A DNA stretch of 64,000 nt from Escherichia coli (GTDB lineage Bacteria; Pseudomonadota; Gammaproteobacteria; Enterobacterales; Enterobacteriaceae). Shown in pieces: positions 2,819 to 40,399 of the stretch. The stretch is from NCBI RefSeq assembly GCF_022846255.1, contig NZ_AP025682.1. One strand, written 5' to 3'. The notes under the pieces were generated by a model. That model was not told the origin of the DNA and did no database searches. It saw only the letters and a program-made list of their open reading frames with translations. The position numbers were made by a program, and so were the translations under genes. Position 1 is the first letter of the stretch, and the number at the start of each line of letters is the position of its first letter.

Positions 2819-2903
2819 AAGCCTGTTGATGTGGGTTGAGTCAGGTTGACTTCAGTTGAGGAGAAAAGCTGGAAAAGCCTTGCGTAGCGCGGATTTCAGG
2901 CAT

Positions 2904-2927
2904 AAAAAAAGACCTCAGTTGAGGTCT
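2904..2927 (-). terminator. rho-independent terminator (displaced native leuX terminator)
   Basis: An 8-bp stem AGACCTCA/TGAGGTCT with a run of 7 T on the minus strand, lying immediately after the partial tRNA 3'-end repeat. Confidence 0.55.
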
Positions 2928-2940
2928 ATTTACATACTTT

Positions 2941-2963
2941 TGGTGCGAAGGCCGGACTCGAAC
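2941..2963. repeat. distal att direct repeat: copy of the leuX 3' end
   Basis: TGGTGCGAAGGCCGGACTCGAAC matches the 3' end of the tRNA at 21030-21053 (TGGTGCCGAAGGCCGGACTCGAAC) except for one missing C. Confidence 0.85.
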
Positions 2964-2990
2964 ATATTAATTATCCCGTTGTATTTAAGG

Positions 2991-3200
2991 CTATTTTATC
3001 AAAATCATTATTGAAGTACCATCATTAATACCATCATAGGTATTGTTCTCCTTTGGCAACAGTTCTTTGATATCGAAATACTTTAACGAACTTTTTATGA
3101 CATCATACTTTGAAGAAAAAATCACATACTGATTTTCATCCAGTACATCTTGCAAGACAAGGTATAAAACAGGGACTACGATTAAAAATAGCAAAGTCAT
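2991..3200 (-). CDS. hypothetical small protein with N-terminal hydrophobic helix
   Basis: The ORF alone (69 aa, MTLLFLIVVPVLYLVLQ...). No recognisable family, and the region is very AT-rich. Confidence 0.2.
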   Translation of the reverse strand: MTLLFLIVVPVLYLVLQDVLDENQYVIFSSKYDVIKSSLKYFDIKELLPKENNTYDGINDGTSIMILIK

Positions 3201-3685
3201 TCACTAAATGAATTCAAAATCAGTGATGTTCTTATCTGCAAGAATATAATATATTTAAAAGATTATAAGCAATATATAAATAATAATATAGCTTTAAAAA
3301 AACACACATGAATTAGAAGTTAAATACATTAATTAAAGAAACAAATAAGTAAGAATTTTGTTTTTAAATAACTCATGCAAACGCATCGTTTATTTATATT
3401 AAAGGAAAATGATGAAATCCAATCTAAATTTAAATAGCTACATTACAAACGAATAGAAAAAGAAGCATTTTCCATGTTAAACTACTATCTTGGTGAAGAC
3501 AGGGGGTATAGCCTTCTGCGGTAGCCTACGCTCTTCGAATGCAAAGCAAGAAAATAACCTTTATAATCAAATTGTTATGCAATGCGCTTGTAGAGCAAAG
3601 GTATCTTAAACGAATAGGTTTAACAGTTAAAGCCTCTTTACATAGGCTGAACAAGGGCAGTACTTGAAAATGATAAAATTGGGGT

Positions 3686-5371
3686 ATGTTTAAAATTATG
3701 AATGCCCATAGTTTAGAGATGAGAAAAGAGTTAGGAGCATATTATACTCCAAGTGCTCTTAGTCAAGTGATGTCAGATTGGGCAATTAGAAGACCAACTG
3801 ATAAAATACTTGAGCCAAGTTTTGGAGGCTGTGGCTTTTTAGAAAGCTGTGAAAAGAGCCTCATGGAGATAGGCTGCATAAACCCAATGGAAAATTTATT
3901 TGGGGTTGATGTAGACCAAAAAGCCTTTGATACTCTCAAAAAAAAATATGGGCATTTATTAATAAAAAAACATTTCATTTTAAGTGATTTCATTAACGTA
4001 TTTCCAAAAGATTTTGGCATTGAAGATTTTGAGGTTATCATTGGGAACCCTCCTTATATCTCTATGCATAATATGAGTTATGAACAAAGGAAGTCCTGTG
4101 AAAAAGTTTTTGCTGACTCACCTTTTAAAACAAAAACATTAGGACGCAATGCAAGTCTTTGGGGGTTTTTCTTACTCCATGCATTAAGCTTCATTCGAGA
4201 AAATGGACGAATAGCGTGGGTATTACCGAGTAGTTTTTTAAATGCCTATTATGCGAAAGAGCTTATAAGAATTTACAAAAATCATTTTAACCATCTAAAA
4301 ATAATAAAGATAAATGAAAGACTTTTCAAAAATGAAGGTGCCGATGAAATGTCAGTACTTTTTTTATGCGATGAGTTTCACAGGACACCTATCAATAATG
4401 GATACGTTTCAATTGGATTTGCTGACACATTAAATGAACTAACCAGCATAATGACTGGAACTAAAGAAAACAAATTAAATAGCTCTGAAAATTACAAATA
4501 TAATATATTAGATATTGACACATTAAATGTGATATCGTCTATAACAGAACATAAGTACAGTTTAAAAATACAGGATATTGCTGATATAAAGATTGGGATG
4601 GTAACCGGCATGAACAACTTCTTTATATTGGATCAAAATCAAATTTTAAAACATAATTTAGACAATAAACATTTTAGACCAGTTATTTCACGATTTTCAC
4701 ATTTGAAGGGAATTCACCACACATTAAAAAGACATACGAAGTTAATTGCAGACAATAAAAAAGGATTGCTATTACACGTCAGTCCAGATGATTTATATGA
4801 AAAACATAGTCCGTTGAGAAAATATTTATCACAAGTTGATAGAAAAGAACGAGTCAAAAACCGCACATTCAAAAAACGAAAAAAGTGGTTTCAACCAGAT
4901 GATGGTATTTACCCAGACGCATTTTTTTCATATATGGTTCATGAGTTTCCCAGAATGATATTAAATAAAGGGAAAGTTAACTGCACTAACTCAATACATC
5001 GTATCTTTTTCAAAGATATAGCATCTAATAAATTAAAAAAAGCATGTTGCATATCTCTTTTATCAACATTTTCACAACTTTCTGCCGAACTTGAAGGTCG
5101 GTCATATGGCTCAGGTGTGCTAAAAATAGAGCCTACCGCAGGAAAGAACATATCATTCTTAATTAAAGATGATTTAATACACGAGTTAAGCAACTTAAGT
5201 AAAGAAATAGATCAATTGCTTTTAAATAATGAAACAAGCAATGCCACTGCTTTAGTTGATAAGTTTTTTGTTGATAAGGGACTAATTAGCTTAGATGAAT
5301 TGAAAAGTCTTAAAAAAGGGTTATTCAGATTAAGAAAAGATCGATATAAAGGGGTCAAAAATTATGAGTGA
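3686..5371 (+). CDS. N6-adenine DNA methyltransferase, gamma class (Eco57I/TaqI-like) with its own C-terminal target-recognition domain
   Basis: Motif order is GAYYTP (aa 17-22), then the AdoMet motif I EPSFGGCGF (aa 43-51), then the catalytic motif IV NPPY (aa 121-124). A C-terminal TaqI-like specificity signature is present: IKIGMVTGMNNFFIL. Confidence 0.85.
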   Translation: MFKIMNAHSLEMRKELGAYYTPSALSQVMSDWAIRRPTDKILEPSFGGCGFLESCEKSLMEIGCINPMENLFGVDVDQKAFDTLKKKYGHLLIKKHFILSDFINVFPKDFGIEDFEVIIGNPPYISMHNMSYEQRKSCEKVFADSPFKTKTLGRNASLWGFFLLHALSFIRENGRIAWVLPSSFLNAYYAKELIRIYKNHFNHLKIIKINERLFKNEGADEMSVLFLCDEFHRTPINNGYVSIGFADTLNELTSIMTGTKENKLNSSENYKYNILDIDTLNVISSITEHKYSLKIQDIADIKIGMVTGMNNFFILDQNQILKHNLDNKHFRPVISRFSHLKGIHHTLKRHTKLIADNKKGLLLHVSPDDLYEKHSPLRKYLSQVDRKERVKNRTFKKRKKWFQPDDGIYPDAFFSYMVHEFPRMILNKGKVNCTNSIHRIFFKDIASNKLKKACCISLLSTFSQLSAELEGRSYGSGVLKIEPTAGKNISFLIKDDLIHELSNLSKEIDQLLLNNETSNATALVDKFFVDKGLISLDELKSLKKGLFRLRKDRYKGVKNYE

Positions 5372-7673
5372 AGATATTCTTTTTTTGAAGGATAAGATGA
5401 AAGCCCTCCTGGATAATGAGGCTCTCGATTATGATAAAGTATTAGAAACAGCAGTAAAAATCACCGAAAAAGACAACAACAATATTAGATTTTCTGTAGA
5501 TGCGAATTTAGTTAGAAGATTAGGTGAGCAGTTAGTCGCTAAAAAAACTACTGCTGTCAGTGAATTGGTGAAAAATGCTTATGACGCAGATTCGACATTA
5601 GTAAATGTATATTTCGAATTGAACGAAGCAAATCCTCGAATAGTCATATTCGATGACGGCACAGGTATGTCAAAGGAAGATATTATCAATGGATTCATGC
5701 GAATAAGCACAAGTGAAAAAGAAGATAACTCTGTTTCAGAACGATATCAGAGACTAAGAGCAGGTAGAAAAGGTATTGGGCGTTTTTCTACACAGCGATT
5801 AGGAAATTATTTAAAAATAATTACCAAGCAAGAAAATGAAGAGTTAGGATATTTAATAGAAATTAACTGGCAGCAGTTTTCAAAAAAGAAAAATATATCC
5901 TTCATTGCTAACACTATCTCAAAAATCGATGTGGATTTCATTCATGGAACAAAAATAATAATAGAAGATCTGAATGATAAAGATTGGTCTGATGGGAACA
6001 TAAAAACGGCTTATAAATATATTAAGAGCATTATAAATATTGCCCCAAGCGAGACAGATCCAGGTTTCCAAGTAAAGTTCTATTATAAAAATGCCAATGG
6101 CTATGAATTAGTTGCAGATGAGAAAACTGAAATTTTTTCTGATAGTGATGCTCATATTACAGCAACACTTGAAAATGGAAATGCTGTAGTGAGAGTTAGC
6201 AGTGAAACCCTTGGCATAAAAAATGAAAGCATAGATGTATGGTATGATGAAAAAAATAACATACGAAAATTCTCACATATAAACTCTCCAGTAAAGCTTG
6301 ATGCATACTATTTCTCATTAGCAACAGTTAACTCCAGAAAACAAGCGGCATATTTACGTGAAAATGGCGGAATAAAAATCTATCGAAATGGATTCAAGGT
6401 TTCTCCTTATGGAGAGCAGTATGATGACTGGACGGCTCTTGATGACTCGGTTCGAAGGAGAAAGATATTACCCCCTCATGGTAATCAAAACTTCTTTGGA
6501 CACGTCAAAGTTGAAGACCTAAATGGAATAGACTTTGAAGAAACGTCCTCAAGGGAAGGTCTGATTCATACCGATGCCTTTCAAGAACTTCGCCTCTTTG
6601 TATATAAAGCACTGACGGCTGCGGTAATAAGAATTAGTGAAGCCAGAAATATAAAAATAAATCCAAATGACCGTAGCTATGTTAAAGAAACTAAACCAAC
6701 AATATCAGTCAAAGATAAATTAAATATTGTATCTGAAACGATAAGCTCGGTTAGTAAATTGGTAGATGCAGCAACATCTGTTGATGACGTTTCAAGTGAT
6801 GGTGTCATTAATAACATTGAAGATAAAAGTATAAGAAACAAAATTATTGAAGATCTCCATGAAGCCGCAGATGAGCTAAAACAAGCGAGTGTGATATCTC
6901 AATCTTTAATCGATGAAATTGAGCTTCTTAGAGTGCTTGGCGCTATGGGCCTTGCTATTGGTGAGTTTACACACGAAATAAATTTATCAATAACAAGTTT
7001 GAGTATTAACGTTCAAAACCTTAAACAGTCTAAATTATTAGAGGAAGATAGAGACTCTGCTCTAAATAGCCTTGAAAATAATATTGCAACATTAAAATCA
7101 TTTACTAAATTTTTTGACAGTACTATACGTGAGAATGTAAACAGAAATAAGAAAGTTATTGAGATAAGAGACTCTATTGAGCCATTTTATGAATCGATGA
7201 AACCAATAATAGAACGCAAAGGAATTCAGTTTGCAATACATTATGAAGGTTATGAACTTTTTACGAAGCCGATTCATGTTTCAGAGCTATATTCTGTATT
7301 TATAAATCTCTTTACGAATGCATATAAAGCAATACTTCGTTCTGGAACAAATCCACGAAAAATGTCTTTAACTGCGAAAAAAGATAGTGAAGATATAATT
7401 ATCCGATTCGAAGATAGCGGTGATGGAATTGAACCTGCAAATAGAGAAAGAGTTTTTGAGCCTTTCTATACAACAAGTACACCATCAGGACCTTTTGAAA
7501 GTGATGATTTATCATTAAAAGGAATGGGATTGGGGTTATCAATCGTACGTGATCTCGTTGAATCCATGTCTGCAGAAATATCTATAGTTGATGCATCCGA
7601 TGGTTTTACAACGTGCTTTGAGTTGAGAATTCCAAAAGCTGATGATAAGGAAATACCAGATGACATCTATTAA
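5364..7673 (+). CDS. double-GHKL protein: N-terminal MORC/MutL-like ATPase module + coiled region + C-terminal histidine-kinase core (H-box, N, G1, G2 boxes)
   Basis: N-terminal module: ELVKNAYDAD (N71, D74), DDGTGM (aa 97-102), GRKGIGRFS (aa 134-142). C-terminal module: IGEFTHEINLS (H537), INLFTNAYKA (N652), EDSGDGI (aa 683-689), GMGLGLSIV (aa 720-728). No predicted TM segment. The start overlaps the methyltransferase stop by 8 nt. Confidence 0.7.
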   Translation: MSEDILFLKDKMKALLDNEALDYDKVLETAVKITEKDNNNIRFSVDANLVRRLGEQLVAKKTTAVSELVKNAYDADSTLVNVYFELNEANPRIVIFDDGTGMSKEDIINGFMRISTSEKEDNSVSERYQRLRAGRKGIGRFSTQRLGNYLKIITKQENEELGYLIEINWQQFSKKKNISFIANTISKIDVDFIHGTKIIIEDLNDKDWSDGNIKTAYKYIKSIINIAPSETDPGFQVKFYYKNANGYELVADEKTEIFSDSDAHITATLENGNAVVRVSSETLGIKNESIDVWYDEKNNIRKFSHINSPVKLDAYYFSLATVNSRKQAAYLRENGGIKIYRNGFKVSPYGEQYDDWTALDDSVRRRKILPPHGNQNFFGHVKVEDLNGIDFEETSSREGLIHTDAFQELRLFVYKALTAAVIRISEARNIKINPNDRSYVKETKPTISVKDKLNIVSETISSVSKLVDAATSVDDVSSDGVINNIEDKSIRNKIIEDLHEAADELKQASVISQSLIDEIELLRVLGAMGLAIGEFTHEINLSITSLSINVQNLKQSKLLEEDRDSALNSLENNIATLKSFTKFFDSTIRENVNRNKKVIEIRDSIEPFYESMKPIIERKGIQFAIHYEGYELFTKPIHVSELYSVFINLFTNAYKAILRSGTNPRKMSLTAKKDSEDIIIRFEDSGDGIEPANRERVFEPFYTTSTPSGPFESDDLSLKGMGLGLSIVRDLVESMSAEISIVDASDGFTTCFELRIPKADDKEIPDDIY

Positions 7674-8763
7674 CCTACTTTATATCGATGATGATCAGCC
7701 TCAGCAAGTAAAGGGTTTAATTGAAGCAATAATCAGTAAAGCGAGTTTTGATTTAAATATAACTCATAAACCGCCGACGAAAATGAGTGAAATAGCCATA
7801 GAGTTGAGACAAGGTTATGATGGTATCATCATAGATCAAAAACTTGACAGCTTTGTTGAGGGAGTAGAACCAGTTGATTACTTTGGTGCCGCGTTAGCAC
7901 AAAATTTGCGAACACTCATGGCGGGTAAGTCAGATAATATATCTTATAAGCCAATAATTTTACTCTCTCTCGAAAGCTTATTAATTGAATATTATAATCC
8001 CGATTCAAGCTCGCATGATCTATTTGATTTAGTTTTGAGTAAAAGCATATTAGAACAACCAGAATTGTTAGAAAAAAAAGTTCACTTAATAAAATCTATT
8101 GTGAATGCTTACAAACGTGCACATTCGGAAGACTCGTTATATCAATTGCTTTCTCTGAGCAGTAATTATTCATTGCTTGATAAAAGATTTGAAATATATA
8201 TTTCTCAGTATGATAAAGATATACATAAGCTCGTCACATCCATACACTCCACACTTCTGAGAAGTAGTGGCATGTTAGTTTCTGAGATAACTTTGGCAAC
8301 CAGACTGGGTATTAATATTGAAGAATCGCCAGACTGGCACCAAGTAATTGGGCACCTTGAGGAATATAAATACAATGGCATATTCTCTGATTATTATAAA
8401 AGATGGTGGTGGGCAGATGTAGAGTTGTGGATAAATAAAAAGCTTAACTGCCCAATAATTAAAGGATTAACCTCAGAAAAAAGAGTGGAGATCATCAAAG
8501 AAAAACTTGGCTTAGAACGATTGATGCCAATTCATAGCGTACATCCAGGCCAAAGCACCAAGTTTTGGGTTAATTGTATCATCAGTAAAGAACCTCTTGA
8601 TACAATAGATGCTCTTCGTGCATCATCTATGGAATTAAAACCTTGGGAAGATGATAAATACCTTTCAATTAAAACAGTGTTAGAGAGACGGGCCGAAAAA
8701 TATAAAGTACATCCAGAAGATAGAACAAAATTGGATCGAATTCGGGCGAGGTTTAAATTATAA
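7660..8763 (+). CDS. receiver (REC)-like domain protein with uncharacterised ~230-aa C-terminal domain
   Basis: Numbering from the MTSINLLY start. The REC signature residues are in the right order: LLYIDDD (D10-12), GIIIDQKLD (D59), PIILLSL (S103), LVLSKS (K128). The C-terminal part (…YKRWWWADVELWINKK…) matches nothing I recognise. The ORF overlaps the upstream stop by 14 nt. An alternative start at 7642 is possible. Confidence 0.5.
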   Translation: MTSINLLYIDDDQPQQVKGLIEAIISKASFDLNITHKPPTKMSEIAIELRQGYDGIIIDQKLDSFVEGVEPVDYFGAALAQNLRTLMAGKSDNISYKPIILLSLESLLIEYYNPDSSSHDLFDLVLSKSILEQPELLEKKVHLIKSIVNAYKRAHSEDSLYQLLSLSSNYSLLDKRFEIYISQYDKDIHKLVTSIHSTLLRSSGMLVSEITLATRLGINIEESPDWHQVIGHLEEYKYNGIFSDYYKRWWWADVELWINKKLNCPIIKGLTSEKRVEIIKEKLGLERLMPIHSVHPGQSTKFWVNCIISKEPLDTIDALRASSMELKPWEDDKYLSIKTVLERRAEKYKVHPEDRTKLDRIRARFKL

Positions 8764-9506
8764 TGAACAATAATACAACTTTGTTAGACGATATGTGTAG
8801 GCTCAGGGACTTTTTATATGATAGCCGCATATGCCCAGATATTAATCCTCTCAACCGTTTAATCAGTAAACTTAATGCAAATCTCCACTCCGAAACAGGG
8901 GAGGACTTTGAATACTCTTTAGACGATTTAGTATTTTATCTTAGCGAAAAATCTGGAACAATTTGTCCGACCCAAATTACACCCAAAGAAAACCCTATTG
9001 AAATACATTTGGAACTTATATTAAAAAGTGAAGGCCCTTATGAATTTTCGAAGATTAAAGAACTTTCAGGGCAATTACGACTTAAAGCTGAGTGGATCAA
9101 TGACACAACAGAAAAAATTGAGATAAAAACATCACATAGTGCTTGGCATTTTGATTATCATGTTCCTCAAATGGGGGATGGCGTAAATTCATTTACTCAT
9201 CCTCAATTCCATTTACAAAATGGAGGAAACAGGCTGACTGATAATTTAAATGACTATGGAGAGTTAATGATTCTTGATGCTCCAAGACTACCTTTACCTC
9301 CTATGGATGTGATATTAGCCATTGACTTTATTATTTCAAATTTCTTTGGTTCTATTTGGCAACAAGCATTATGTGATTCAGAATACATTGATGTAGTTAA
9401 AAGAGCACAAAAAGCATGGTGGAAACCTTATTATGAAGGTATAAGTCAACACTGGTCTGGCAATGGCTCAGGAATATCCAATATCCTAATTCCAAACCTT
9501 CTGTAG
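8763..9506 (+). CDS. hypothetical protein, last gene of the operon (His-rich segment)
   Basis: ATG overlaps the upstream TAA (TAATG). 247 aa. Contains SAWHFDYHVPQMGDGVNSFTHPQFHLQNGG. No family recognised. Confidence 0.5.
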   Translation: MNNNTTLLDDMCRLRDFLYDSRICPDINPLNRLISKLNANLHSETGEDFEYSLDDLVFYLSEKSGTICPTQITPKENPIEIHLELILKSEGPYEFSKIKELSGQLRLKAEWINDTTEKIEIKTSHSAWHFDYHVPQMGDGVNSFTHPQFHLQNGGNRLTDNLNDYGELMILDAPRLPLPPMDVILAIDFIISNFFGSIWQQALCDSEYIDVVKRAQKAWWKPYYEGISQHWSGNGSGISNILIPNLL

Positions 9507-9716
9507 TGTATCAAAATCTGTTAACCATCTCCAATTACGAATAGCAATATTTATATAAAACTAATTTTTTATTTTAAACAACTTCAGCAAGGGCTAACTC
9601 TCAGCATCTCCTTCGGTGATACTTTGAGTTGCTCCTTGTTTTTTCGCCCTTTGGTTGAAAAAATTAAAAGCAAAACCAACCCTATACATTGACTTTTTCA
9701 GCATCTATCATATAAA

Positions 9717-9747
9717 TAAAATAAGCATAATGGACATGCTTATTTTA
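9717..9747. promoter_or_regulatory. 12-bp inverted repeat upstream of mobC (candidate oriT / mob promoter element)
   Basis: TAAAATAAGCAT-n7-ATGCTTATTTTA, about 25 nt before the mobC-like start. Location is typical for small-relaxase oriT, but no nic consensus was recognised. Confidence 0.3.
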
Positions 9748-9771
9748 CTTTACTATATGAAAGGAGTTCAT

Positions 9772-10185
9772 ATGAATGATAGGAATCATACTTTTAATAA
9801 GTTCGAGCCATTCAGAAGTTGTAGCTATGAAAATTTTACTTCTGCTAAAACACTCTCCCAGCAGACACGTTCTCATTGTATTAGTATCAGATTAAATGAT
9901 GCCGAGTTATCTTACGTTGATGGCTTACGAGAAGATCTCAACCGTGCTGTTTGGATACGTATGTCAGCATTGAATCGTCTCCCTTCCAAAATTCCTGAAA
10001 TAAATCTAATTGTCTGGAAAGACCTTGCCAAAGCATCTCAGAATCTGAATAACCTCGTTCAGCATCTCAACACTAAATCACACGATAGTCCTTTTACTAT
10101 CACCGAAATTTATACGGTACAAAAAAGAATAAAAGCACTAAGAGATGCCCTTCTGTCAGCAAATCGATCTGTCAGTGATAAATAA
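9772..10185 (+). CDS. MobC-like relaxosome accessory protein
   Basis: AAGGAG lies 6 nt upstream of the ATG at 9772. IRLNDAELSYVDGLRE... followed by a helical C-terminus is the usual MobC/ribbon-helix-helix pattern. The stop overlaps the relaxase start (TAATG). Confidence 0.6.
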   Translation: MNDRNHTFNKFEPFRSCSYENFTSAKTLSQQTRSHCISIRLNDAELSYVDGLREDLNRAVWIRMSALNRLPSKIPEINLIVWKDLAKASQNLNNLVQHLNTKSHDSPFTITEIYTVQKRIKALRDALLSANRSVSDK

Positions 10186-11372
10186 TGAAAGGGATGCAAA
10201 AAATCCGCAGAGGAAAGAGTTTTGCTGGTGTCGTCCTCTATGCGTTAAAGCCCGGTTCTCATCATAAAAAAGACCCTATCGTGATCGGTGGAAATATAAC
10301 GATAGTTGGCAATGCCGCTAAAGATCTGATCGCTGAATTTGATAGCACCAAACAGCTTCGCCCTGACGTGCAAAAGGCTGTTTGGCACAACTCGCTTCGC
10401 TTACCTAAAGGTGAATCACTAACGGCTAAACAGTGGTCTGAAATAGCAGATGATTACATGTCCCGCATGGGCTTCTCTGAAACGCATCTCAGATGCTACG
10501 TCCTACATGACGACGAAGATGGCCAGCACATCCATATCATCGCCAGCAGAGTGTCTCTTGATGCCGGAAAGCTCTACCTCGGCAGGAATGAGAACCTGGC
10601 AAGCACGAGAATAATTCAGCAACTTGAAAGAAATTACAATCTGACAAGAACCAAAGGGCCAGGAGCTAAAGCATCTACATCTTCTCTTTCCTCTAAACCG
10701 AAACATAAAAAATCACGTAATGAGGCTATGTTAGAGGAGAGAACTGGTGAACCATGCCCTAAATCCATCATCCAAAGGGCTATAGATTCGATAACATTAA
10801 ATCCTATAGCAATTGATGACTTCGTTGAAAAGCTGAATAGCATAGGGATTACGGCGAAAAGCAATATTTCTTCAACTGGCAAGATGAATGGATTTTCCTT
10901 TGAATGCAAAGGTGTTGTGTTCAAAGCTTCCCAGCTTGGCAAGAAGTATAGTTGGAAGAACCTGGAATCAATGATTTCAATGAATTACAACTCACACATT
11001 GGTGATGAAAAACCTGTCATCCCTGAACCTGCTGCCCATCGCAGCAACGAAGCTGTCATACCTATAGTGGAAGACTATTCTGATGAAAAGATTTACCCTG
11101 AGATAAGGGTACCCTTACCAAGACCTGACACAGCGCCCACAAAACCTACAAGCATGACAATGCGTTGGATCGCAACCATACCTTATCTTGTGAGTGTTAT
11201 TAGCGCACTTAAAACGATGCGTATCCCCTTTCTAAAGGCGTTCAATGGCCCAAGGAAGTTCTTTTCCGTGTCCATGATTCACCTGTCCTCTGTAAGCCTG
11301 AAACAGACCAAAACGAATAATTTCAAACCAAAAAGTTCCCACCAAAAGGCCCACAAGCCCCTTCTCCCCTGA
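10185..11372 (+). CDS. mobilisation relaxase (MobA/VirD2-type relaxase/nuclease domain)
   Basis: N-terminal FAGVVLYALKP (candidate catalytic Tyr). Conserved VWHNSLRLPKGESL block. Histidine triad YVLHDDEDGQHIHIIASRV. The C-terminal third is low-complexity and may be degenerate. Confidence 0.75.
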   Translation: MKGMQKIRRGKSFAGVVLYALKPGSHHKKDPIVIGGNITIVGNAAKDLIAEFDSTKQLRPDVQKAVWHNSLRLPKGESLTAKQWSEIADDYMSRMGFSETHLRCYVLHDDEDGQHIHIIASRVSLDAGKLYLGRNENLASTRIIQQLERNYNLTRTKGPGAKASTSSLSSKPKHKKSRNEAMLEERTGEPCPKSIIQRAIDSITLNPIAIDDFVEKLNSIGITAKSNISSTGKMNGFSFECKGVVFKASQLGKKYSWKNLESMISMNYNSHIGDEKPVIPEPAAHRSNEAVIPIVEDYSDEKIYPEIRVPLPRPDTAPTKPTSMTMRWIATIPYLVSVISALKTMRIPFLKAFNGPRKFFSVSMIHLSSVSLKQTKTNNFKPKSSHQKAHKPLLP

Positions 11373-13756: not shown

Positions 13757-15388
13757 TTATTCTCCTTTTTTTATTCTCTTATGGAATTCATACCATCTAT
13801 CAGCATTTATGTTCCCATCATTTTTATCATACAGTGTTCTTTTTGAAATTTTATCGTGAATTTTTGAAATCGTTTCGTTATCTAAACCAGAATTCTCAAT
13901 CGGATAATGTTCACACGGCTTAAACGCATATGAGTGCTTGCAGTAGCCATGTTTTGATACCAGTACTGCACCACTACTAAGTGAATCAAACTCATTAAGA
14001 ACCACCACTGGAATATCCTTTATTCTGTGCTCATTAACACACACTGATAACTTTTGTTCTCTTATTGCTTTAGACATTTGAAGATGCGATCTGTGGTCAT
14101 AAGAAAAATTTTGAGAAATAAGCTTACGTCCAGACCAGCGAGCAATACTAAACTCATCCATACCATTTATTTGAGCAAAAGTGTTGAGAAGATGCCTCAG
14201 TTGATGTGTTCTTAGCAAATATGGGCTACCATCATCATTTATATAACCATGTCTTTTAAATACATTTAAATATCCTTTTATATAATCAGAATCAACGATA
14301 TCAGTTTTAAAAAAATTCGTTGTAGGTCTGAATAACTTATCTAACATTTCCTTTTTATTTTGATTTAACTGTCCTTCAGTTAACAAGCAAAGCGCATTAG
14401 AATATTTGATTTTCTTCTCTCTATCATACCAAAAGAGATCTGGAGGTATATTTTCTTTAAGGGTTCCCATCGTTGAATTAGAGTAATTCTTTTGAATTTC
14501 AGCAGCCAATAATCTCGCTTGACTTGATAATTCTTTTAATCTGCTAATAGCCTTTTTTGCTACAGGTATCATTAAAGTTGGAATCCATTTTATATTGCCT
14601 TCATACCCTTTTGCTGAAAAAAATCTTAAACCGTATCTTTGAATGCCCTTTCCATCACATTCTGTAATTTCACAATCCACTGGCAAAGCTAAAATTTCCG
14701 ATATCCTACTCGGTGCACACATAAGTAAAGCAAGCACAGATGTAGTAAATATATCTCTTGACGATAATTGTTCATCCCGCTTTGAAAAAATCTCAGCAAT
14801 CGCAATAACTGATTTGATATCAGGCAATCTAGAATGGCCTTCCAGTGAAGAATCATAACCAGTCCAAGACTGAGTAATCCTATACCTAATTGGACTTATC
14901 CAAAATAAATAAGATGAGTTAGTCATCCTATTATCATTTAAAAATGAACTCAATTTCTCAAGTTCTTTCCCAATAGCAAATGCATGTGCTTTAGAATACT
15001 TTTCAGAGGCTATCCTTATGCATTCATCAAAGATTGAATTGTTGCAATAGTTTACATTAGCTTCCATATTGATTTTAAGTAAAACGAATTCGACAATCTT
15101 CAACATTGATAATGTTGAGTGTTTCGTCTTAGATTTATTGAATGAATGCACATGCAACATATATGCTTTAGCAAAATTAATAAAGCTATCATCTAAGCAT
15201 TCTTTGCTGTTTAGGTTGTTTTTTGAGTTAAACTTAGTAAACCTATATAAACCTTTCCATTTATTGCTTTCCCAAGAAGTTGTTAAATTATTATTAGAAA
15301 TAGTACTCTTACAAAACTCGATGAACTTAATAACATTATCGTGAGGGTTGTTTTTATTGCTTGGTTCAAAAATAAATATATTGTTCAT
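13757..15388 (-). CDS. tyrosine recombinase, third of trio (543 aa)
   Basis: Catalytic signature in order: CAPSRISEILAL (Arg), THQLRHLLNT (HxxR), NFSYDHR (Tyr). Overlaps the upstream gene by 4 nt. Confidence 0.7.
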   Translation of the reverse strand: MNNIFIFEPSNKNNPHDNVIKFIEFCKSTISNNNLTTSWESNKWKGLYRFTKFNSKNNLNSKECLDDSFINFAKAYMLHVHSFNKSKTKHSTLSMLKIVEFVLLKINMEANVNYCNNSIFDECIRIASEKYSKAHAFAIGKELEKLSSFLNDNRMTNSSYLFWISPIRYRITQSWTGYDSSLEGHSRLPDIKSVIAIAEIFSKRDEQLSSRDIFTTSVLALLMCAPSRISEILALPVDCEITECDGKGIQRYGLRFFSAKGYEGNIKWIPTLMIPVAKKAISRLKELSSQARLLAAEIQKNYSNSTMGTLKENIPPDLFWYDREKKIKYSNALCLLTEGQLNQNKKEMLDKLFRPTTNFFKTDIVDSDYIKGYLNVFKRHGYINDDGSPYLLRTHQLRHLLNTFAQINGMDEFSIARWSGRKLISQNFSYDHRSHLQMSKAIREQKLSVCVNEHRIKDIPVVVLNEFDSLSSGAVLVSKHGYCKHSYAFKPCEHYPIENSGLDNETISKIHDKISKRTLYDKNDGNINADRWYEFHKRIKKGE

Positions 15389-16710
15389 AATGCTCTCCAG
15401 GGATTGAATTTTTTACACGTTAAGCATTTCAAATCCTCTTTCGTATCTTCTAATAAGAAAAATGCATCTGAAACATACTTGATAAAAAAGTTCTTGTTTT
15501 CTTCAATCTCTATGCCCATAAGTATATTAGATAAGGGGTTAAAAAACGCACTTAGTCTCTTATCGATGTCATAAACGTTGTCAGGATTGTTTTTTATATA
15601 TATCATAGAAGAGTTTACTGATTTATGATCTAAGGCTTTAGCAATCACCTCAATTGAGGCTCCTTCGTTAGCCAGTCGACTTCCTAACGTATATCTGAAT
15701 CTTCTAGCATTAAGTTCTATATAGCTGTTAGTCCTTTCTGACCTAACATCGAATTTTGACGGAAAGTGTTTTAATAGTTTTGACATAACTGAATTTTTCA
15801 TATGGAAAAAATCTGTTGTTAAATCAGATAAAAAATCCTCAATCCTTTTTGTTTCCGTAATCTTATCTAAATTCATGAAGATTGGTAATTCGCCTCTATA
15901 GTTATTAATCCCAACACTGAATTTATCTTCAACAAACGCCTGATTTTGATTAATTAGCATTGATAAACTGTCATATAAGAACGGTTCTATCATTACCATA
16001 TTAAATTCTTTTCTGAAACATTTTCTTTGTTTTACTTTTGGTACATTCAAAAAGCACCCTCTCTCATTTTTAATGAGATCTTTAGCTTTTAGAGATATCA
16101 ATTGTAATGGCCTTCTTCCTGTTATTGCCAGCAAAAGGATATAACAATACAAAAAGCATTGAATTTTCTTCTCATGATAAAATTTTCCAACGGCGTTAAT
16201 AATGTTATTGAATTCCGTTTCAGTTAAAGGTCCTTTATTTGGATCTCGTCTTTTAACTGCATCTCCTGTTTGGTTTGGAATGATTTTTATTTTCTCCAGC
16301 ATTCTAATGGCAGTCGCATCTACCCCAGGGTAATTGAGATTTTTCCATTTAGTGATGAAAGCCTTAATTGAGTTTAGTTTGTAGTTTCTTTCTGAACCTA
16401 AATAAACATTCAATTGATATATTGCTTTGTCATCAATAGTATCGATGGTCATTGCACCAAACCACTTATAAAATAGATTGTTAATATTTTGTATATAAAA
16501 AGAACTATATTCAGACGCATAGTAAGCTAATGTTTTTAAGTAGCTAAGTTTCATTTTTGTAGGCATTCTATCTACAACTTTATGAGGGTATACGCAGTTT
16601 TCTTTATCAAGTTGCCATTTCTTATCTGACAGTTTGAAACTATATCTATTCATCTTAGCAAAAAAAATTTGCTCACTTTCAATACATTTTATTTCCACAT
16701 TAAACCCCAC
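15385..16710 (-). CDS. tyrosine recombinase, second of trio (441 aa)
   Basis: ITGRRPLQLISLK (Arg), ARRFRYTLGSRLANEG (xxR box), VNSSMIYIKN (Tyr). Overlaps the upstream gene by 11 nt. Confidence 0.65.
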   Translation of the reverse strand: MGFNVEIKCIESEQIFFAKMNRYSFKLSDKKWQLDKENCVYPHKVVDRMPTKMKLSYLKTLAYYASEYSSFYIQNINNLFYKWFGAMTIDTIDDKAIYQLNVYLGSERNYKLNSIKAFITKWKNLNYPGVDATAIRMLEKIKIIPNQTGDAVKRRDPNKGPLTETEFNNIINAVGKFYHEKKIQCFLYCYILLLAITGRRPLQLISLKAKDLIKNERGCFLNVPKVKQRKCFRKEFNMVMIEPFLYDSLSMLINQNQAFVEDKFSVGINNYRGELPIFMNLDKITETKRIEDFLSDLTTDFFHMKNSVMSKLLKHFPSKFDVRSERTNSYIELNARRFRYTLGSRLANEGASIEVIAKALDHKSVNSSMIYIKNNPDNVYDIDKRLSAFFNPLSNILMGIEIEENKNFFIKYVSDAFFLLEDTKEDLKCLTCKKFNPWRAL

Positions 16711-17905
16711 TAATTATTTTACTTACTGATTTATAGACCTTTAGGACGACATCCTTCTCTTGTTGGGATATATATTTAAAATTGTATCTATTACACATGA
16801 TTGACTCCTTTGACCAACCCATTAGATAATTCCTTAAATCTTTCCTTCTACTATATTCTAATTCAGCGCCTTCAATTCCTTTAGAATACATATAATTCCA
16901 AGAGTGCCTTAACCTATGACCTGAAAGATTATATAGCTTTGGACTTGCTCGTTTCAGTGTTGATATCACCTTCTCATAAGCTGAAATGCTTAAGGGTTCT
17001 CCTGCGTTTTTTCCGGTGCAATGAGCCACGAATAAGAAATTATGTTTTTTCCTTTTTGTCATTTTTTCCCTGCTATTGCTTATGTAATCAAAAATTTCAC
17101 TGGCTAACTCATCAGATAACGGAATAACCCTTTCTCCAGTCTTTACTAATGGCTGATAAGCTCTTCCATCTTCTTTTGAATCATGTCTTCTGACTACACT
17201 TAAAGTGTTGTCTCTGAGATCAAAATCATCTATTTTAAGATTGAGCAACTCTCCAGCCCTTAAACCTAAATTTAAGAGCAAGGTAAATATTAGTCTGTTC
17301 CTGACCTGTACTTCCTTATGAAAAGGGTTTTCAATCCCACCAATTTCCAATAGACGGAAAAGCACATTGATCTCTTCTTCATTTAACGATTTTTCAGATA
17401 TTTCATTCATATTCAATGAACTGTTTCTTGGAATATGTGCTCTGATACTTTCAATAAATACTTCTACTTCATACTTTGCATGAATCCCCTTTGACGAATG
17501 AACTAATCCACATAACCACTTAAGGTAGCGTGAAAAAACGTGTACTCTATAACTAAAGGTTCTCTTTGCAATAAACCTATTACTTGCTGATTTTATATTT
17601 ATAATTTTTTGTCTATCGAATCTTTGTTTCGCATATCTTACCAGATCATCTATTTCTGCAACGCTGAGATACTTTTTAAGCTCAATTCTCTCAACTATAT
17701 TAATTTTCCTACTATCTAAGAAATTACTAAAAATTAGTAAGTTAGTTGCAACTATTTCCATAGTTGAGGCGGTTGCGCCTCTATTTCTTATGTCTGTAGT
17801 AAGAAATAGATTTTGATAGTAAGCTGGTAGATTACTATTTTTATCAAGGATCAGGCATCCTCGCTCCCCATTACTCATGATGAATTTCTTTACTTTATAT
17901 CCCAT
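16700..17905 (-). CDS. tyrosine recombinase, first of trio (401 aa)
   Basis: NLGLRAGELLNLK (Arg), SGHRLRHSWNY (HxxR), MCNRYNFKY (Tyr). Confidence 0.7.
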   Translation of the reverse strand: MGYKVKKFIMSNGERGCLILDKNSNLPAYYQNLFLTTDIRNRGATASTMEIVATNLLIFSNFLDSRKINIVERIELKKYLSVAEIDDLVRYAKQRFDRQKIINIKSASNRFIAKRTFSYRVHVFSRYLKWLCGLVHSSKGIHAKYEVEVFIESIRAHIPRNSSLNMNEISEKSLNEEEINVLFRLLEIGGIENPFHKEVQVRNRLIFTLLLNLGLRAGELLNLKIDDFDLRDNTLSVVRRHDSKEDGRAYQPLVKTGERVIPLSDELASEIFDYISNSREKMTKRKKHNFLFVAHCTGKNAGEPLSISAYEKVISTLKRASPKLYNLSGHRLRHSWNYMYSKGIEGAELEYSRRKDLRNYLMGWSKESIMCNRYNFKYISQQEKDVVLKVYKSVSKIISGV

Positions 17906-19592: not shown

Positions 19593-20840
19593 TTAGTTAT
19601 TAAAATCAAAAGGTGCAATTCTTCTCTTAGTTGTTTCATCAAGATAATCAGCCCACCACTGCAACATCAACCTACGCTCATCCAAATGCTCAGCTTTATG
19701 AATGTATGCGGCACGAACGGAGTTCCGCTCCTGATGGCTCATCTGCCTCTCAACAGCATCTCTCGACCACTTTCCTGACTCGATCAAAGCACTACAAGCC
19801 ATCGCTCTAAAACCATGCCCACATACCTCAACGGTTGTGTCATAACCCATCGCCCTGAGCGCCTTGTTCACTGTGTTTTCGCTCATAGGTTTTCTGAAAT
19901 CATGATCGCCAATGAATACCAGGTCGCATTCGCCGCTGATTTCTCTGATGGCTTTTAGAAGTTCTAAAGCCTGACGACTTAACGGCACGAGGTGTGGGGT
20001 CTTCATTTTTGAACCTCGATGGGAATGTTTGACTCCTGGCAATAGCTCGCGTTCTCCAGGGATAGTCCACATCGCATTTTCAAAGTCGATCTCCGACCAT
20101 CTTGCGAATCGGAGTTCAATGGAACGGATAAAAATGAGCAATGTCAGCTTCACAGCTAATTTAGTAAGTTTCCTACCTTTAAAGCTTTCAATGCGCTCTA
20201 AAAGCTCTGAGAACCTATCAAATGGTAAGGCTGGTCTGTGGGTTCGTTTCGCAACTGTAATTGCCCCAGACATATCTTGTGCTGGATTGTAGTCAATTAA
20301 GCCATTCTGGACGGCATATCGCATTACTGCCGTAGTCCTTTGCTGTAGTCGGGAAGCAACTTCCAGTCGTCCAGAAGCTTCAACGGCCTTGATAGGGGCG
20401 ATAAGATCTCTGGTATTAAGCTCGGATATTTTTCTTTTACCAATAGCAGTAAAGAGACCATCCTCCATGCTTTTTAGAACTCTTTCGCTGTGAGAATCTG
20501 ACCATTTCCTTTTACAGGCAGTATGCCAGTCCCTTGCAACAGCTTCGAATGTCAGGGCTTCGCTTTGCTCAATCTTATCTGCTTTTTTCTTTTCAGAAGG
20601 ATCGATACCATCAGATACCAACTTTTTGGCTTCATCTCGCTTCCTGCGGGCTTCACCAAGAGAGACCATTGGATAAACACCCAATGCTAAAACTTTCTGT
20701 TTGCCCCCGAAACGGTATTGGAGTCGCCAGTACTTTGAACCATTGGGGTTGATCAGCAGGTGCATACCCTGCCCATCTGTGAGTTTGAAAGGTTTATCGG
20801 AGGGCTTTGTTGTTCGAACTTTGATATCAGTGAGTGCCAT
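19593..20840 (-). CDS. P4-type tyrosine integrase (intact, 415 aa)
   Basis: N-terminal arm-binding type sequence MALTDIKVRTTKPSDKPFKLTDGQGMHLLINPNGSKYWRLQYRFGGKQK. Catalytic region includes GHGFRAMACS (HxxR) and AAYIHKAE (Tyr). It sits adjacent to the tRNA 3' end. Confidence 0.9.
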   Translation of the reverse strand: MALTDIKVRTTKPSDKPFKLTDGQGMHLLINPNGSKYWRLQYRFGGKQKVLALGVYPMVSLGEARRKRDEAKKLVSDGIDPSEKKKADKIEQSEALTFEAVARDWHTACKRKWSDSHSERVLKSMEDGLFTAIGKRKISELNTRDLIAPIKAVEASGRLEVASRLQQRTTAVMRYAVQNGLIDYNPAQDMSGAITVAKRTHRPALPFDRFSELLERIESFKGRKLTKLAVKLTLLIFIRSIELRFARWSEIDFENAMWTIPGERELLPGVKHSHRGSKMKTPHLVPLSRQALELLKAIREISGECDLVFIGDHDFRKPMSENTVNKALRAMGYDTTVEVCGHGFRAMACSALIESGKWSRDAVERQMSHQERNSVRAAYIHKAEHLDERRLMLQWWADYLDETTKRRIAPFDFNN

Positions 20841-21029: not shown

Positions 21030-21114
21030 TGGTGCCGAAGGCCGGACTCGAACCGGCACGTATTTCTACGGTTGATTTTGAATCAACTGCGTCTACCGAT
21101 TTCGCCACTTCGGC
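21030..21114 (-). tRNA. leuX: tRNA-Leu (anticodon CAA)
   Basis: The reverse complement reads GCCGAAGTGGCGAAATCGGTAGACGCAGTTGATTCAAAATCAACCGTAGAAATACGTGCCGGTTCGAGTCCGGCCTTCGGCACCA. It is 85 nt with a long variable arm, CAA in the anticodon loop and an encoded CCA. Confidence 0.95.
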
Positions 21115-39323: not shown

Positions 39324-40328
39324 ATGTCCGGGTTTTATCATAAGCATTTCCTGAAATTACTCGATTTCACGCCAGCTGAACTCAACAGCTTGTTGCAGTT
39401 AGCCGCGAAGCTGAAAGCCGATAAGAAAAGCGGTAAAGAAGAAGCCAGACTCACTGGCAAAAACATCGCGCTCATCTTCGAAAAAGACTCGACCCGTACC
39501 CGATGCTCTTTCGAAGTTGCCGCATATGACCAGGGTGCTCGCGTTACTTATCTCGGCCCAAGCGGCAGCCAGATTGGTCACAAAGAGTCGATTAAAGACA
39601 CTGCCCGCGTGCTTGGTCGCATGTATGACGGTATTCAGTATCGCGGCTATGGTCAGGAGATTGTCGAAACACTGGCGGAATACGCTGGCGTGCCAGTATG
39701 GAACGGCTTGACCAATGAGTTCCACCCCACGCAGCTGCTGGCGGATCTCCTCACCATGCAGGAGCATTTGCCCGGCAAAGCATTCAACGAAATGACGCTG
39801 GTCTATGCAGGTGACGCGCGTAACAACATGGGCAATTCGATGCTCGAAGCTGCAGCGCTTACCGGTCTGGATTTGCGTCTGGTCGCGCCACAGGCATGCT
39901 GGCCGGAAGCTGCGCTGGTTACGGAATGCCGCGCCCTGGCACAACAAAATGGCGGGAATATTACGCTGACGGAAGATGTAGCTAAAGGAGTTGAAGGTGC
40001 TGACTTTATCTATACCGATGTATGGGTGTCGATGGGTGAAGCAAAAGAGAAATGGGCTGAACGCATTGCATTGCTGCGTGATTATCAAGTGAACAGCAAG
40101 ATGATGCAGTTGACCGGTAACCCGGAGGTCAAATTCCTCCACTGCCTGCCCGCGTTTCATGACGACCAAACGACGCTTGGCAAAAAAATGGCGAAAGAGT
40201 TTGGCCTACATGGCGGAATGGAAGTGACTGATGAGGTCTTCGAATCTGCCGCCAGCATTGTATTTGATCAGGCGGAAAACCGCATGCATACCATCAAAGC
40301 GGTGATGGTCGCGACGCTCAGTAAATAA
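39324..40328 (+). CDS. argI: ornithine carbamoyltransferase
   Basis: STRTR and HPTQ, HCLP motifs, 334 aa. Confidence 0.95.
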
Positions 40329-40399
40329 TTGATATCGCTATAAAGATGCCGGGAAATACAAAAACATCCCGGCGTCACATTATTTTATGCAGTGATAGT

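Follow-up and report, generated by a model that had tools for sequence, protein, structure and literature searches.

A four-gene cassette in the window

We analyzed a 64,000-nucleotide (nt) stretch of Escherichia coli DNA (contig NZ_AP025682.1, assembly GCF_022846255.1), hereafter the window, and focused on the protein encoded at 7660-8763 (+), which we refer to as the target. Its open reading frame (ORF) is intact and specifies 367 amino acids (aa), with an ATG at 7660 and a TAA at 8761-8763. The RefSeq annotation of E. coli TUM11353, in which the product appears as a "hypothetical protein," uses the identical start codon, and homologs share that methionine; the ORF given in a first-pass annotation of the window, made from the sequence alone, is thus borne out. 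The target gene is the third of four overlapping genes, which encode, in order, a DNA methylase, a kinase, the target and a protein that we call the gene-4 protein. The methylase and kinase genes overlap by 8 nt (an ATGA junction), the kinase and target genes by 14 nt, and the target gene and gene 4 by a TAATG start/stop junction; from these junctions, the four genes are probably translationally coupled. We propose that the target is the response regulator of a DNA-modification-linked defense cassette on a mobile island, and that its C-terminal domain is an output of the adaptor type. We assign this reading, the output included, a probability of roughly 0.6.

A predicted receiver domain and its kinase

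The first-pass annotation had tentatively called a receiver (REC) domain at the N-terminus of the target. Every motif it quoted lies at the residues given: LLYIDDD (D10/D11), GIIIDQKLD (D59), PIILLSL (S103), LVLSKS (K128) and, in the C-terminal domain, YKRWWWADVELWINKK (R248-W251). D10, D11, D54, D59, S103 and K128 are invariant across 14 homologs drawn from the closest clusters (identity down to 30%). Conservation extends to 57 representatives with 26-42% identity, among which D11 and D59 are each kept in 56, S103 in 50 and K128 in all 57. In an AlphaFold2 model of the target (pLDDT, the predicted local distance difference test, 86; pTM, the predicted template modeling score, 0.86), the secondary structure elements follow the order b1-a1-b2-a2-b3-a3-b4-a4-b5-a5. 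Residues 1-130, the stretch that the first-pass annotation had singled out as decisive for its call, adopt the flavodoxin-like (beta-alpha)5 fold in this model. The model also agrees with the remark that the motifs are spaced more widely than in canonical receivers, because in it b3 is followed by an inserted beta-hairpin (residues 61-75) and b4 is joined to b5 by a long connection that contains a low-confidence loop at 116-118. The gathering threshold of Pfam PF00072 was not reached; the target had no match at E<=0.1, and 6 of the 57 relatives gave weak matches (best 3.7e-4). The REC call therefore rests on fold, residues and context and not on a hidden Markov model. With that fold, these catalytic residues and an adjoining histidine kinase whose H-box is intact, the tentative call has held up, and the alignments and model indicate that the target carries a genuine, sequence-divergent phospho-receiver domain.

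The adjoining kinase matches Pfam HATPase_c_3 (3e-27) in its N-terminal GHKL region (aa ~40-205) and HATPase_c (1e-25) at aa 641-759. Between these two HATPase domains, residues 528-585 align with HEF_HK (PF19191) at E 1.1e-3, with a score of 19.8 bits that falls below the 24.1-bit cut-off. In NCBIfam, the N-terminus matches that of the BbrUII/HgiDII restriction endonucleases (2e-27). The H-box of the DHp domain is intact (F-T-H537-E, with H537 encoded at nt 6972-6974). Across seven loci H537-E538, the N box (N648/N652), the G1 box (D684xGDG) and the G2 box (G720xGLGL) are invariant, as are the Bergerat-fold motifs of the N-terminal ATPase (E67/N71, D97xGxG and G134xKGIG). Judged from these motifs, the kinase partner is catalytically intact. 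At one related locus (L013:4674-7011), the kinase is split into ORFs of 671 aa and 117 aa, which looks like decay or a sequencing frameshift.

An output domain of no assignable class

The C-terminal output domain, modeled alone (aa 157-367, AlphaFold2), is predicted with high confidence (pLDDT 90.3, pTM 0.87). The first-pass annotation had recognized no signature in it, and our searches agree: Pfam, PADLOC, NCBIfam, PHROGs and PDB sequence searches of the target gave no usable match, the fold search with the output domain gave no significant structural match and none resembling PNP, and Foldseek against BFVD returned nothing at E <= 1e-3. Two sequence matches were set aside as noise: an NCBIfam 5'-3' exonuclease model (E 0.012, 14.9 bits against a 434-bit cut-off) and tau, the sole match of a profile search of the C-terminal domain against the PDB (E 1.5). 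As modeled, the ~210-aa output domain resembles no solved structure. The earlier, hedged suggestion that it might be either an effector or a DNA-binding module stands: the domain has no assignable class, and neither option is picked out by sequence or fold.

Conservation in the output domain falls on E209, L212, R215, L216, G217, S223, W226, Y238, G240, R248, W249, W250, R275, W303, C306, P312, D314, W329 and Y334. These positions are rich in tryptophan, tyrosine and glycine (W226, Y238, G240, W249, W250, W303, W329, Y334) and include few polar residues (R215, S223, R248, R275, C306, D314); in the 57 representatives there is one near-invariant aspartate and no conserved histidine. The charge of the domain is not conserved, with an isoelectric point (pI) of 7.0 +/- 1.7 in the family (range 4.8-9.9) and of 8.9 in the target itself. 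A conserved L-A-x-R-L-G-I stretch (aa 212-218) resembles the helix-turn signature of a helix-turn-helix (HTH) motif; in the AlphaFold2 model, the loop between the two helices spans ~9 residues and is not a tight turn.

The gene-4 protein

Alignments over 10-11 loci from three phyla revealed an invariant motif in the gene-4 protein: W128-H129-x-D131 ... H146-P147-x-x-H150-x-x-x-G154-G155 ... P174-R175 ... P180-x-D182 ... D188 ... N193. The protein thus has three invariant aspartates and three invariant histidines, and 10 of 11 sequences also have a fourth histidine, H133, which extends the first element to W-H-x-D-x-H. The protein had no match in Pfam, PADLOC, NCBIfam, PHROGs or the PDB, and all 10 homologs checked lacked an HNH Pfam match. 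A single member gave a sub-threshold Pfam match to DUF2290 (E 0.14, 12 bits), which we keep as a lead only; DUF2290 is the partner domain in the "Helicase+DUF2290" defense system. By its motif, the gene-4 protein is a candidate metal-dependent catalytic effector, likelier in that role than the output domain of the target, and by its distribution it appears to be a partner with which the long response regulator is obligately paired. Another Rahnella assembly (L006:1772-2541) has gene 4 split into ORFs of 122 aa and 143 aa, and this too looks like decay or a sequencing frameshift.

Related loci and the exchangeable modification module

A profile search with the target retrieved 899 cluster representatives (50% identity) at E <= 1e-3, 430 of them at <= 1e-30, from several phyla, and the best 150 of the 899 were near full length. 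None of them has a Pfam label or an informative name; the Rahnella bruchi homolog (P0006) is named "protein-PII uridylyltransferase" by NCBI, which looks like a misannotation. With tblastn, the target gave no match in a phage collection and one match only among plasmids. A search for related loci that used a narrow alignment returned only two genomes.

We compared twelve further loci, from Vibrio, Rahnella bruchi, an Oceanospirillaceae metagenome-assembled genome (MAG), Pseudomonas wenzhouensis, Roseivirga, a Hymenobacter plasmid, a Pyrinomonadaceae MAG, three further assemblies, a JGI metagenome contig and, distantly, a Rhizobium plasmid. Two of the twelve are Pseudomonas-type loci. The order of kinase, target homolog and gene-4 homolog (~220-290 aa) is kept in all twelve. 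Their neighbors, which include integrases, Tn7-like genes, prophages and prokaryotic Argonaute (pAgo), place them in defense-island or mobile-element contexts; the Rahnella bruchi cassette sits in a P2-prophage hotspot between gpA and the portal gene, and that of the Hymenobacter plasmid adjoins pAgo. The distant version, on Rhizobium sp. TH2 plasmid pTH2c (L016:3030-10038), encodes a methylase, a kinase, a 376-aa response-regulator-like protein and a 235-aa gene-4-like protein, followed by a fifth gene for a GIY-YIG nuclease with DUF4357.

The methylase is the modification component of the cassette. That of the window matches Pfam N6_Mtase (6e-16), Eco57I (5e-14) and M_Eco57I_C (4e-19) and the PADLOC model MTase_II (2e-89). 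An N6- or S-adenosylmethionine-dependent methylase adjoins the trio of kinase, target and gene 4 in 11 of the 12 further loci, with Eco57I-type Pfam labels recorded for 8; the Eco57I-type gene is upstream in most loci, and in Bacteroidota the methylase is downstream and of another subtype. At the remaining locus, on the JGI contig Ga0606415_0166 (L003:541-9819), genes for SspB, SspC and SspD (PADLOC 1e-104, 0 and 2e-91) directly precede the kinase, target and gene-4 homologs, so that phosphorothioate modification replaces the methylase. The trio of this locus takes the place of SspE or SspFGH and gave no PADLOC match to either, and the literature searched held no paper linking Ssp with a histidine-kinase/HATPase module. 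That the trio is kept while the modification module changes suggests that the trio is portable and can be combined with more than one self-marking chemistry.

Assignment to other modification-linked systems was considered and rejected. For MADS, the methylase gave weak MAD2 matches, at 24 bits where the cut-off is 720 bits, and further components of that system were absent; PglX and DrmMI matches on methylases were likewise weak, and BREX and DISARM were rejected on the same grounds. With respect to classical Type II restriction-modification (R-M), genes 2-4 contain no detectable domain of the PD-(D/E)XK, HNH, GIY-YIG or PLD type; a methylase is present, but the sole likeness to an R-M endonuclease in these genes is that of the N-terminal ATPase of the kinase to the BbrUII/HgiDII N-terminus.

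Genomic setting

The cassette lies on a low-GC integrated island at ~2.8-20.9 kb (GC content 0.32-0.40, against ~0.50 in the flanks), bounded by an intact P4-type integrase adjoining tRNA-Leu(CAA) (Table 1). Among 5,426 complete E. coli genomes, DNA encoding the target was found in one, TUM11353. Upstream of the cassette in that genome lies a different region, with type I R-M and AbiE.

Table 1. Coordinates of the cassette, its domains and the features that bound the island
Feature	Position in window	Strand	Basis
N6-adenine DNA methyltransferase, Eco57I-type with M_Eco57I_C domain	3686..5371	+	Pfam, PADLOC
Sensor kinase, 769 aa: MORC/MutL-type GHKL ATPase, conserved middle region, DHp, histidine-kinase catalytic domain	5364..7673	+	Pfam, NCBIfam, alignment
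REC domain of target, aa 1-132	7660..8055	+	residues, AlphaFold2 fold
REC active-site codons	D10/D11 nt 7687-7692; D59 nt 7834-7836; S103 nt 7966-7968; K128 nt 8041-8043	+	sequence
Long alpha5/linker helix (aa 133-156) and C-terminal output domain (aa ~160-367) of target	8056..8763	+	AlphaFold2
Gene 4, 247 aa, His/Asp-rich	8763..9506	+	alignments over 10-11 loci
P4-type tyrosine integrase, intact	19593-20840	-	Pfam Arm-DNA-bind_3, Phage_int_M, Phage_integrase
tRNA-Leu(CAA)	21030-21114	-	ARAGORN

Just 3' of the cassette, a 395-aa MobA/VirD2-type relaxase is encoded at 10185-11372 (+), preceded by an overlapping 176-aa ORF (the pair spans 9655-11372, +); with the relaxase directly downstream, the cassette rides on a mobilizable element. 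Farther along the island, three overlapping tandem recombinase-type genes at 13757-17905 (-) encode proteins of 401 aa and 441 aa, both with Phage_integrase matches, and of 543 aa, with no Pfam match, an arrangement that resembles a recombinase-in-trio element. At the left edge (1949-2818, -) there is a truncated P4-type integrase that retains the arm-binding and central domains and lacks the catalytic domain; together with its intact paralog at the right, it points to islands, either in tandem or decayed, at a single tRNA site. Just outside the island lies a gene for a 297-aa WYL-domain protein (547-1440, +), and WYL proteins are frequent regulators of defense loci. A second low-GC patch at 40001-42000 (GC 0.352 against ~0.50) may be another horizontally acquired insert.

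Scans for promoters and operators 5' of the operon gave no signal above chance. At 3365-3396, ~290 bp 5' of the methylase start, two sequences (TAAATAACTCATGC / GCATCGTTTATTTA) form an imperfect inverted repeat with 79% complementarity and a spacer of 4 nt; it is a possible operator, yet it is not above chance for an AT-rich region. No HTH Pfam match was found in ORFs of >=30 aa within 2820-3700, or in the small upstream ORFs of three related loci (L002, L005 and L009).

A proposed phosphorylation-gated partner of gene 4

Our model draws on Ambrosia, an experimentally validated defense system of P. aeruginosa that comprises an XRE protein (AbrR), an N6-methyltransferase (AbrA), a HATPase/kinase (AbrB), a REC protein (AbrC) and an HNH protein (AbrD), and in which the D60A substitution in AbrC abolishes protection (bioRxiv 10.1101/2025.09.30.679545). 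We suggest that the MORC-like ATPase clamp of the window kinase detects invading, presumably unmodified, DNA, and that the kinase would then autophosphorylate on H537 and pass the phosphoryl group to D59 of the target. We infer this transfer because the catalytic residues are intact on both proteins and because of the AbrC D60A result. Phosphorylation of the receiver would release or re-orient the C-terminal domain, which might then dock on the gene-4 protein and activate it post-translationally; this is the least certain step. It would follow that the output domain is not a conventional DNA-binding transcription factor and that the gene-4 protein is the catalytic effector. The methylase, or SspBCD in one relative, would mark self DNA.

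Four points lead us to favor, over a transcription factor, a role for the target as a partner that phosphorylation gates and that acts on the gene-4 protein. Among the three system types compared, output domain and downstream gene vary together: the long response regulator is always found with the gene-4 family, the short AbrC (209 aa) with an HNH protein, and a 331-aa response-regulator-like protein of Campylobacter with Dcm, no further gene being present. Through their TAATG junction, the target and gene 4 are probably coupled in translation. The output domain is neither consistently basic nor like any DNA-binding fold, and it is gene 4, not the output domain, that carries a catalytic-looking His/Asp motif.

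Several points weigh against this reading. The defense role that we infer relies on context and on a relative that is distant. In the Ambrosia study, AbrC is taken to act most likely on transcription, and infection induced reporters put in place of abrA or abrD (bioRxiv 10.1101/2025.09.30.679545); such control could apply to the target too, whose C-terminal domain is basic (pI 8.9) and contains the HTH-like stretch. The co-variation rests on about a dozen loci and three comparison systems, not on a systematic census. The catalytic nature of gene 4 is guessed from its motif alone, and the GIY-YIG gene that follows gene 4 in Rhizobium may mean that gene 4 is not the nuclease.

A serious rival, which we nevertheless consider rather unlikely, is that phosphorylated D59 would let the C-terminal domain, as a divergent DNA-binding fold, bind the cassette promoter, so that infection turns on the genes for methylase and effector. 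Response regulators are for the most part transcription factors, and the inverted repeat upstream of the methylase could serve such a protein, as the HTH-like stretch and the pI of the target could. The long inter-helix loop, with no tight turn, and a C-terminal charge that drops to pI 4.8 within the family argue against DNA binding, however, and the promoter-like and repeat signals upstream are not above chance. No XRE or C-protein resembling AbrR was found, and the Ambrosia reporter and D60A results are silent on the output domain, since AbrC lacks it. The C-terminal domain might instead be the catalytic effector itself, a nuclease or toxin of new fold that is switched by phosphorylation as in DtcC of the Detocs system, with gene 4 an accessory or immunity factor. 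REC-fused effectors do exist in defense (Detocs, bioRxiv 10.1101/2023.01.24.525353), Campylobacter-type systems consist only of a kinase, a response-regulator-like protein and Dcm, so that some activity must lie in one of them, and a fold with no known relative and with strongly conserved polar residues (R215, S223, R248, R275, C306, D314) leaves room for a new enzyme. A single near-invariant acidic residue and no conserved histidine would nevertheless make a poor metal-dependent nuclease, and many of the conserved positions are tryptophan, tyrosine, glycine or leucine, as one would expect of a core or an interface. Of the two proteins, that of gene 4, a gene present at every locus, has a motif that looks more richly catalytic, and the C-terminus of the Campylobacter protein is not homologous to that of the target. 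A catalytic C-terminal domain is less likely than a transcription factor, and we judge it improbable.

We give very little credence to the idea that the receiver never undergoes phosphorylation, being a pseudo-receiver or a structural subunit, or that the cassette is a housekeeping two-component system unrelated to defense. Pseudo-receivers are common, and the sub-threshold PF00072 score and the unusual insertions in the receiver would suit one. All five residues of the phosphorylation chemistry are nevertheless conserved over 57 divergent members, and the H-box of the kinase is invariant. The locus is confined to one complete E. coli genome, on a low-GC tRNA-Leu island, a DNA-modification module accompanies the family in every case and mobile elements in many, and the AbrC D60A substitution abolishes Ambrosia defense.

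The phosphorylation-gated partner model can be taken a step further, to a possibility that we hold only tentatively: kinase, response regulator and gene 4 may form a portable and hitherto uncharacterized "phosphorelay-gated restriction module" in which phosphorylation of the aspartate is turned into activation of a new His/Asp metalloenzyme effector, gene 4, and which is able to fit unrelated self-marking chemistries. If so, the module plugs into N6-adenine methylation (at least two methylase subtypes) or SspBCD phosphorothioation, and self would be told from non-self by His-to-Asp signaling and not by direct nuclease-DNA recognition or by transcriptional control.

Implications

Two-component-style signaling in restriction-like defense has been recognized only recently, through bioinformatics in 2021, Detocs in 2023 and the Ambrosia preprint in 2025. 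The locus described here represents a widespread branch (the 899 cluster representatives) in which the response regulator has a large output domain, predicted to be well folded, and invariably occurs with a His/Asp-rich protein that is just as unannotated, and the occurrence of the same trio behind an N6-adenine methylase or SspBCD suggests a restriction module that is agnostic to the modification. Characterizing it would give a function to two large protein families for which Pfam has no model, could possibly reveal a new effector fold, and would tell direct enzyme control by a receiver from transcriptional control, a distinction that also matters for the Ambrosia model. It would also be of value for annotation, as the genes now carry the label "hypothetical protein."

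Comparison with known systems

Ambrosia, the relative validated by experiment, has the same order of N6-adenine methylase, HATPase/histidine-kinase fusion, REC protein and fourth gene. Using the sequences deposited by its authors, we found the window kinase to be homologous to AbrB (BLASTP 1e-36, 29% identity over ~360 aa, kinase residues 43-403 against about 12-398 of AbrB). Between the REC domains of the target and AbrC the relationship is distant (hhalign E 1.2e-4, probability 56%, 131 columns); the two share an IIxD-x-x-L...Y-x-G-x-x-L-A-x-x-L-R-T signature, and the phospho-acceptor lies at nearly the same position (D60 in AbrC, D59 in the target). Beyond this, the systems part. AbrC is a REC domain with a short C-terminal region and lacks the ~210-aa output domain of the target; AbrD is a canonical HNH nuclease, to which gene 4 is unrelated (hhalign probability 0.2%); and Ambrosia has AbrR, an XRE/HipB-like protein, whereas no such gene was found near the window cassette. 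AbrA and the window methylase, although both are N6-adenine enzymes, show no more than a generic relationship (over the catalytic core, 23% identity and E 9e-5). Phage grown on a host with the methylase alone reportedly stays sensitive to Ambrosia. Reports of Ambrosia come from across the Gammaproteobacteria (bioRxiv 10.1101/2025.09.30.679545), whereas the target family spans several phyla.

The second relative is the set of R-M-linked "TCS-like" (two-component-system-like) elements described bioinformatically, in which a HATPase_c_3-DHp-HATPase_c kinase stands beside a divergent REC protein and for which descent from paraMORC ATPases was proposed (Bellieny-Rabelo et al. 2021, PMC8011034). These elements and the window cassette have in common a soluble kinase adjoining a REC protein with no other known domain, a non-random association with R-M, and the adjacency of response-regulator-like and kinase-like genes, which was seen at all loci examined. 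The published set is dominated by C5-cytosine methylases, Vsr and HNH_2, whereas the window cassette and its relatives are linked to N6-adenine methylases (or Ssp), and PMC8011034 describes neither the target's C-terminal domain nor the gene-4 family. Pfam PF19192 (Response_reg_2) had no match in the target, its 57 relatives, AbrC or the Campylobacter protein, in searches for which the model had no positive control. With PF19191 below its cut-off on the kinase as well, the Pfam models that came out of the 2021 paper miss this branch. The Campylobacter arrangement is the Dcm-linked type of the same paper (PMC8011034): on Campylobacter coli pTet (L017:4989-9419), a relative of the kinase and the 331-aa "response regulator" are accompanied by a convergent dcm C5-methylase gene, with no separate nuclease gene. 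The pTet plasmids are conjugative tetracycline-resistance plasmids, and 41 Campylobacter plasmids matched. Only the REC domain is common to the pTet protein and the target.

Detocs, a functional analogue, employs a two-component phosphorelay directly as an anti-phage system, and its DtcC joins a REC domain (D58) to a non-DNA-binding output (bioRxiv 10.1101/2023.01.24.525353). It resembles the target in having an N-terminal REC domain fused to an output domain, and the Detocs output domains are modular. In contrast to the MORC-type GHKL region of the window kinase, the sensor of DtcA is of the TPR type; Detocs depends on DtcB, a standalone buffer receiver, and the window operon has none; and the outputs of DtcC are PNP ATP-nucleosidase or other known toxins, none of which was detectable in the target by Pfam, PADLOC or fold search. 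The window cassette also includes a DNA-modification gene, which Detocs does not. With no TPR kinase, no standalone receiver and no PNP or other toxin domain, membership in Detocs was rejected.

At the root of the TCS-like R-M theme are the paraMORC/GHKL-containing R-M systems (Iyer et al. 2008, PMC2292703), and one REBASE putative enzyme, R.EcoUTORF4938P, is a GHKL protein with a C-terminal histidine-kinase domain (Orlowski & Bujnicki 2008, PMC2441816). In the paraMORC systems, as in the window cassette, a protein whose N-terminus is a MutL/MORC-like GHKL ATPase shares its operon with a DNA methylase. In the accounts of paraMORC and R.HgiDII, however, the GHKL protein is the restriction subunit, and there is no receiver protein, output domain or gene-4 family. 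With canonical response regulators (CheY, OmpR/PhoB, NarL), the target has in common the (beta-alpha)5 fold and the DD, D, S/T and K residues; it differs from them in the hairpin insertion after b3, in its sub-threshold PF00072 score and in an output domain outside the known output classes. The response-regulator family, its output domain and its gene-4 partner are undescribed in the libraries and literature searched; the class of system to which they belong is already published, and the branch described here is a further variant of it.

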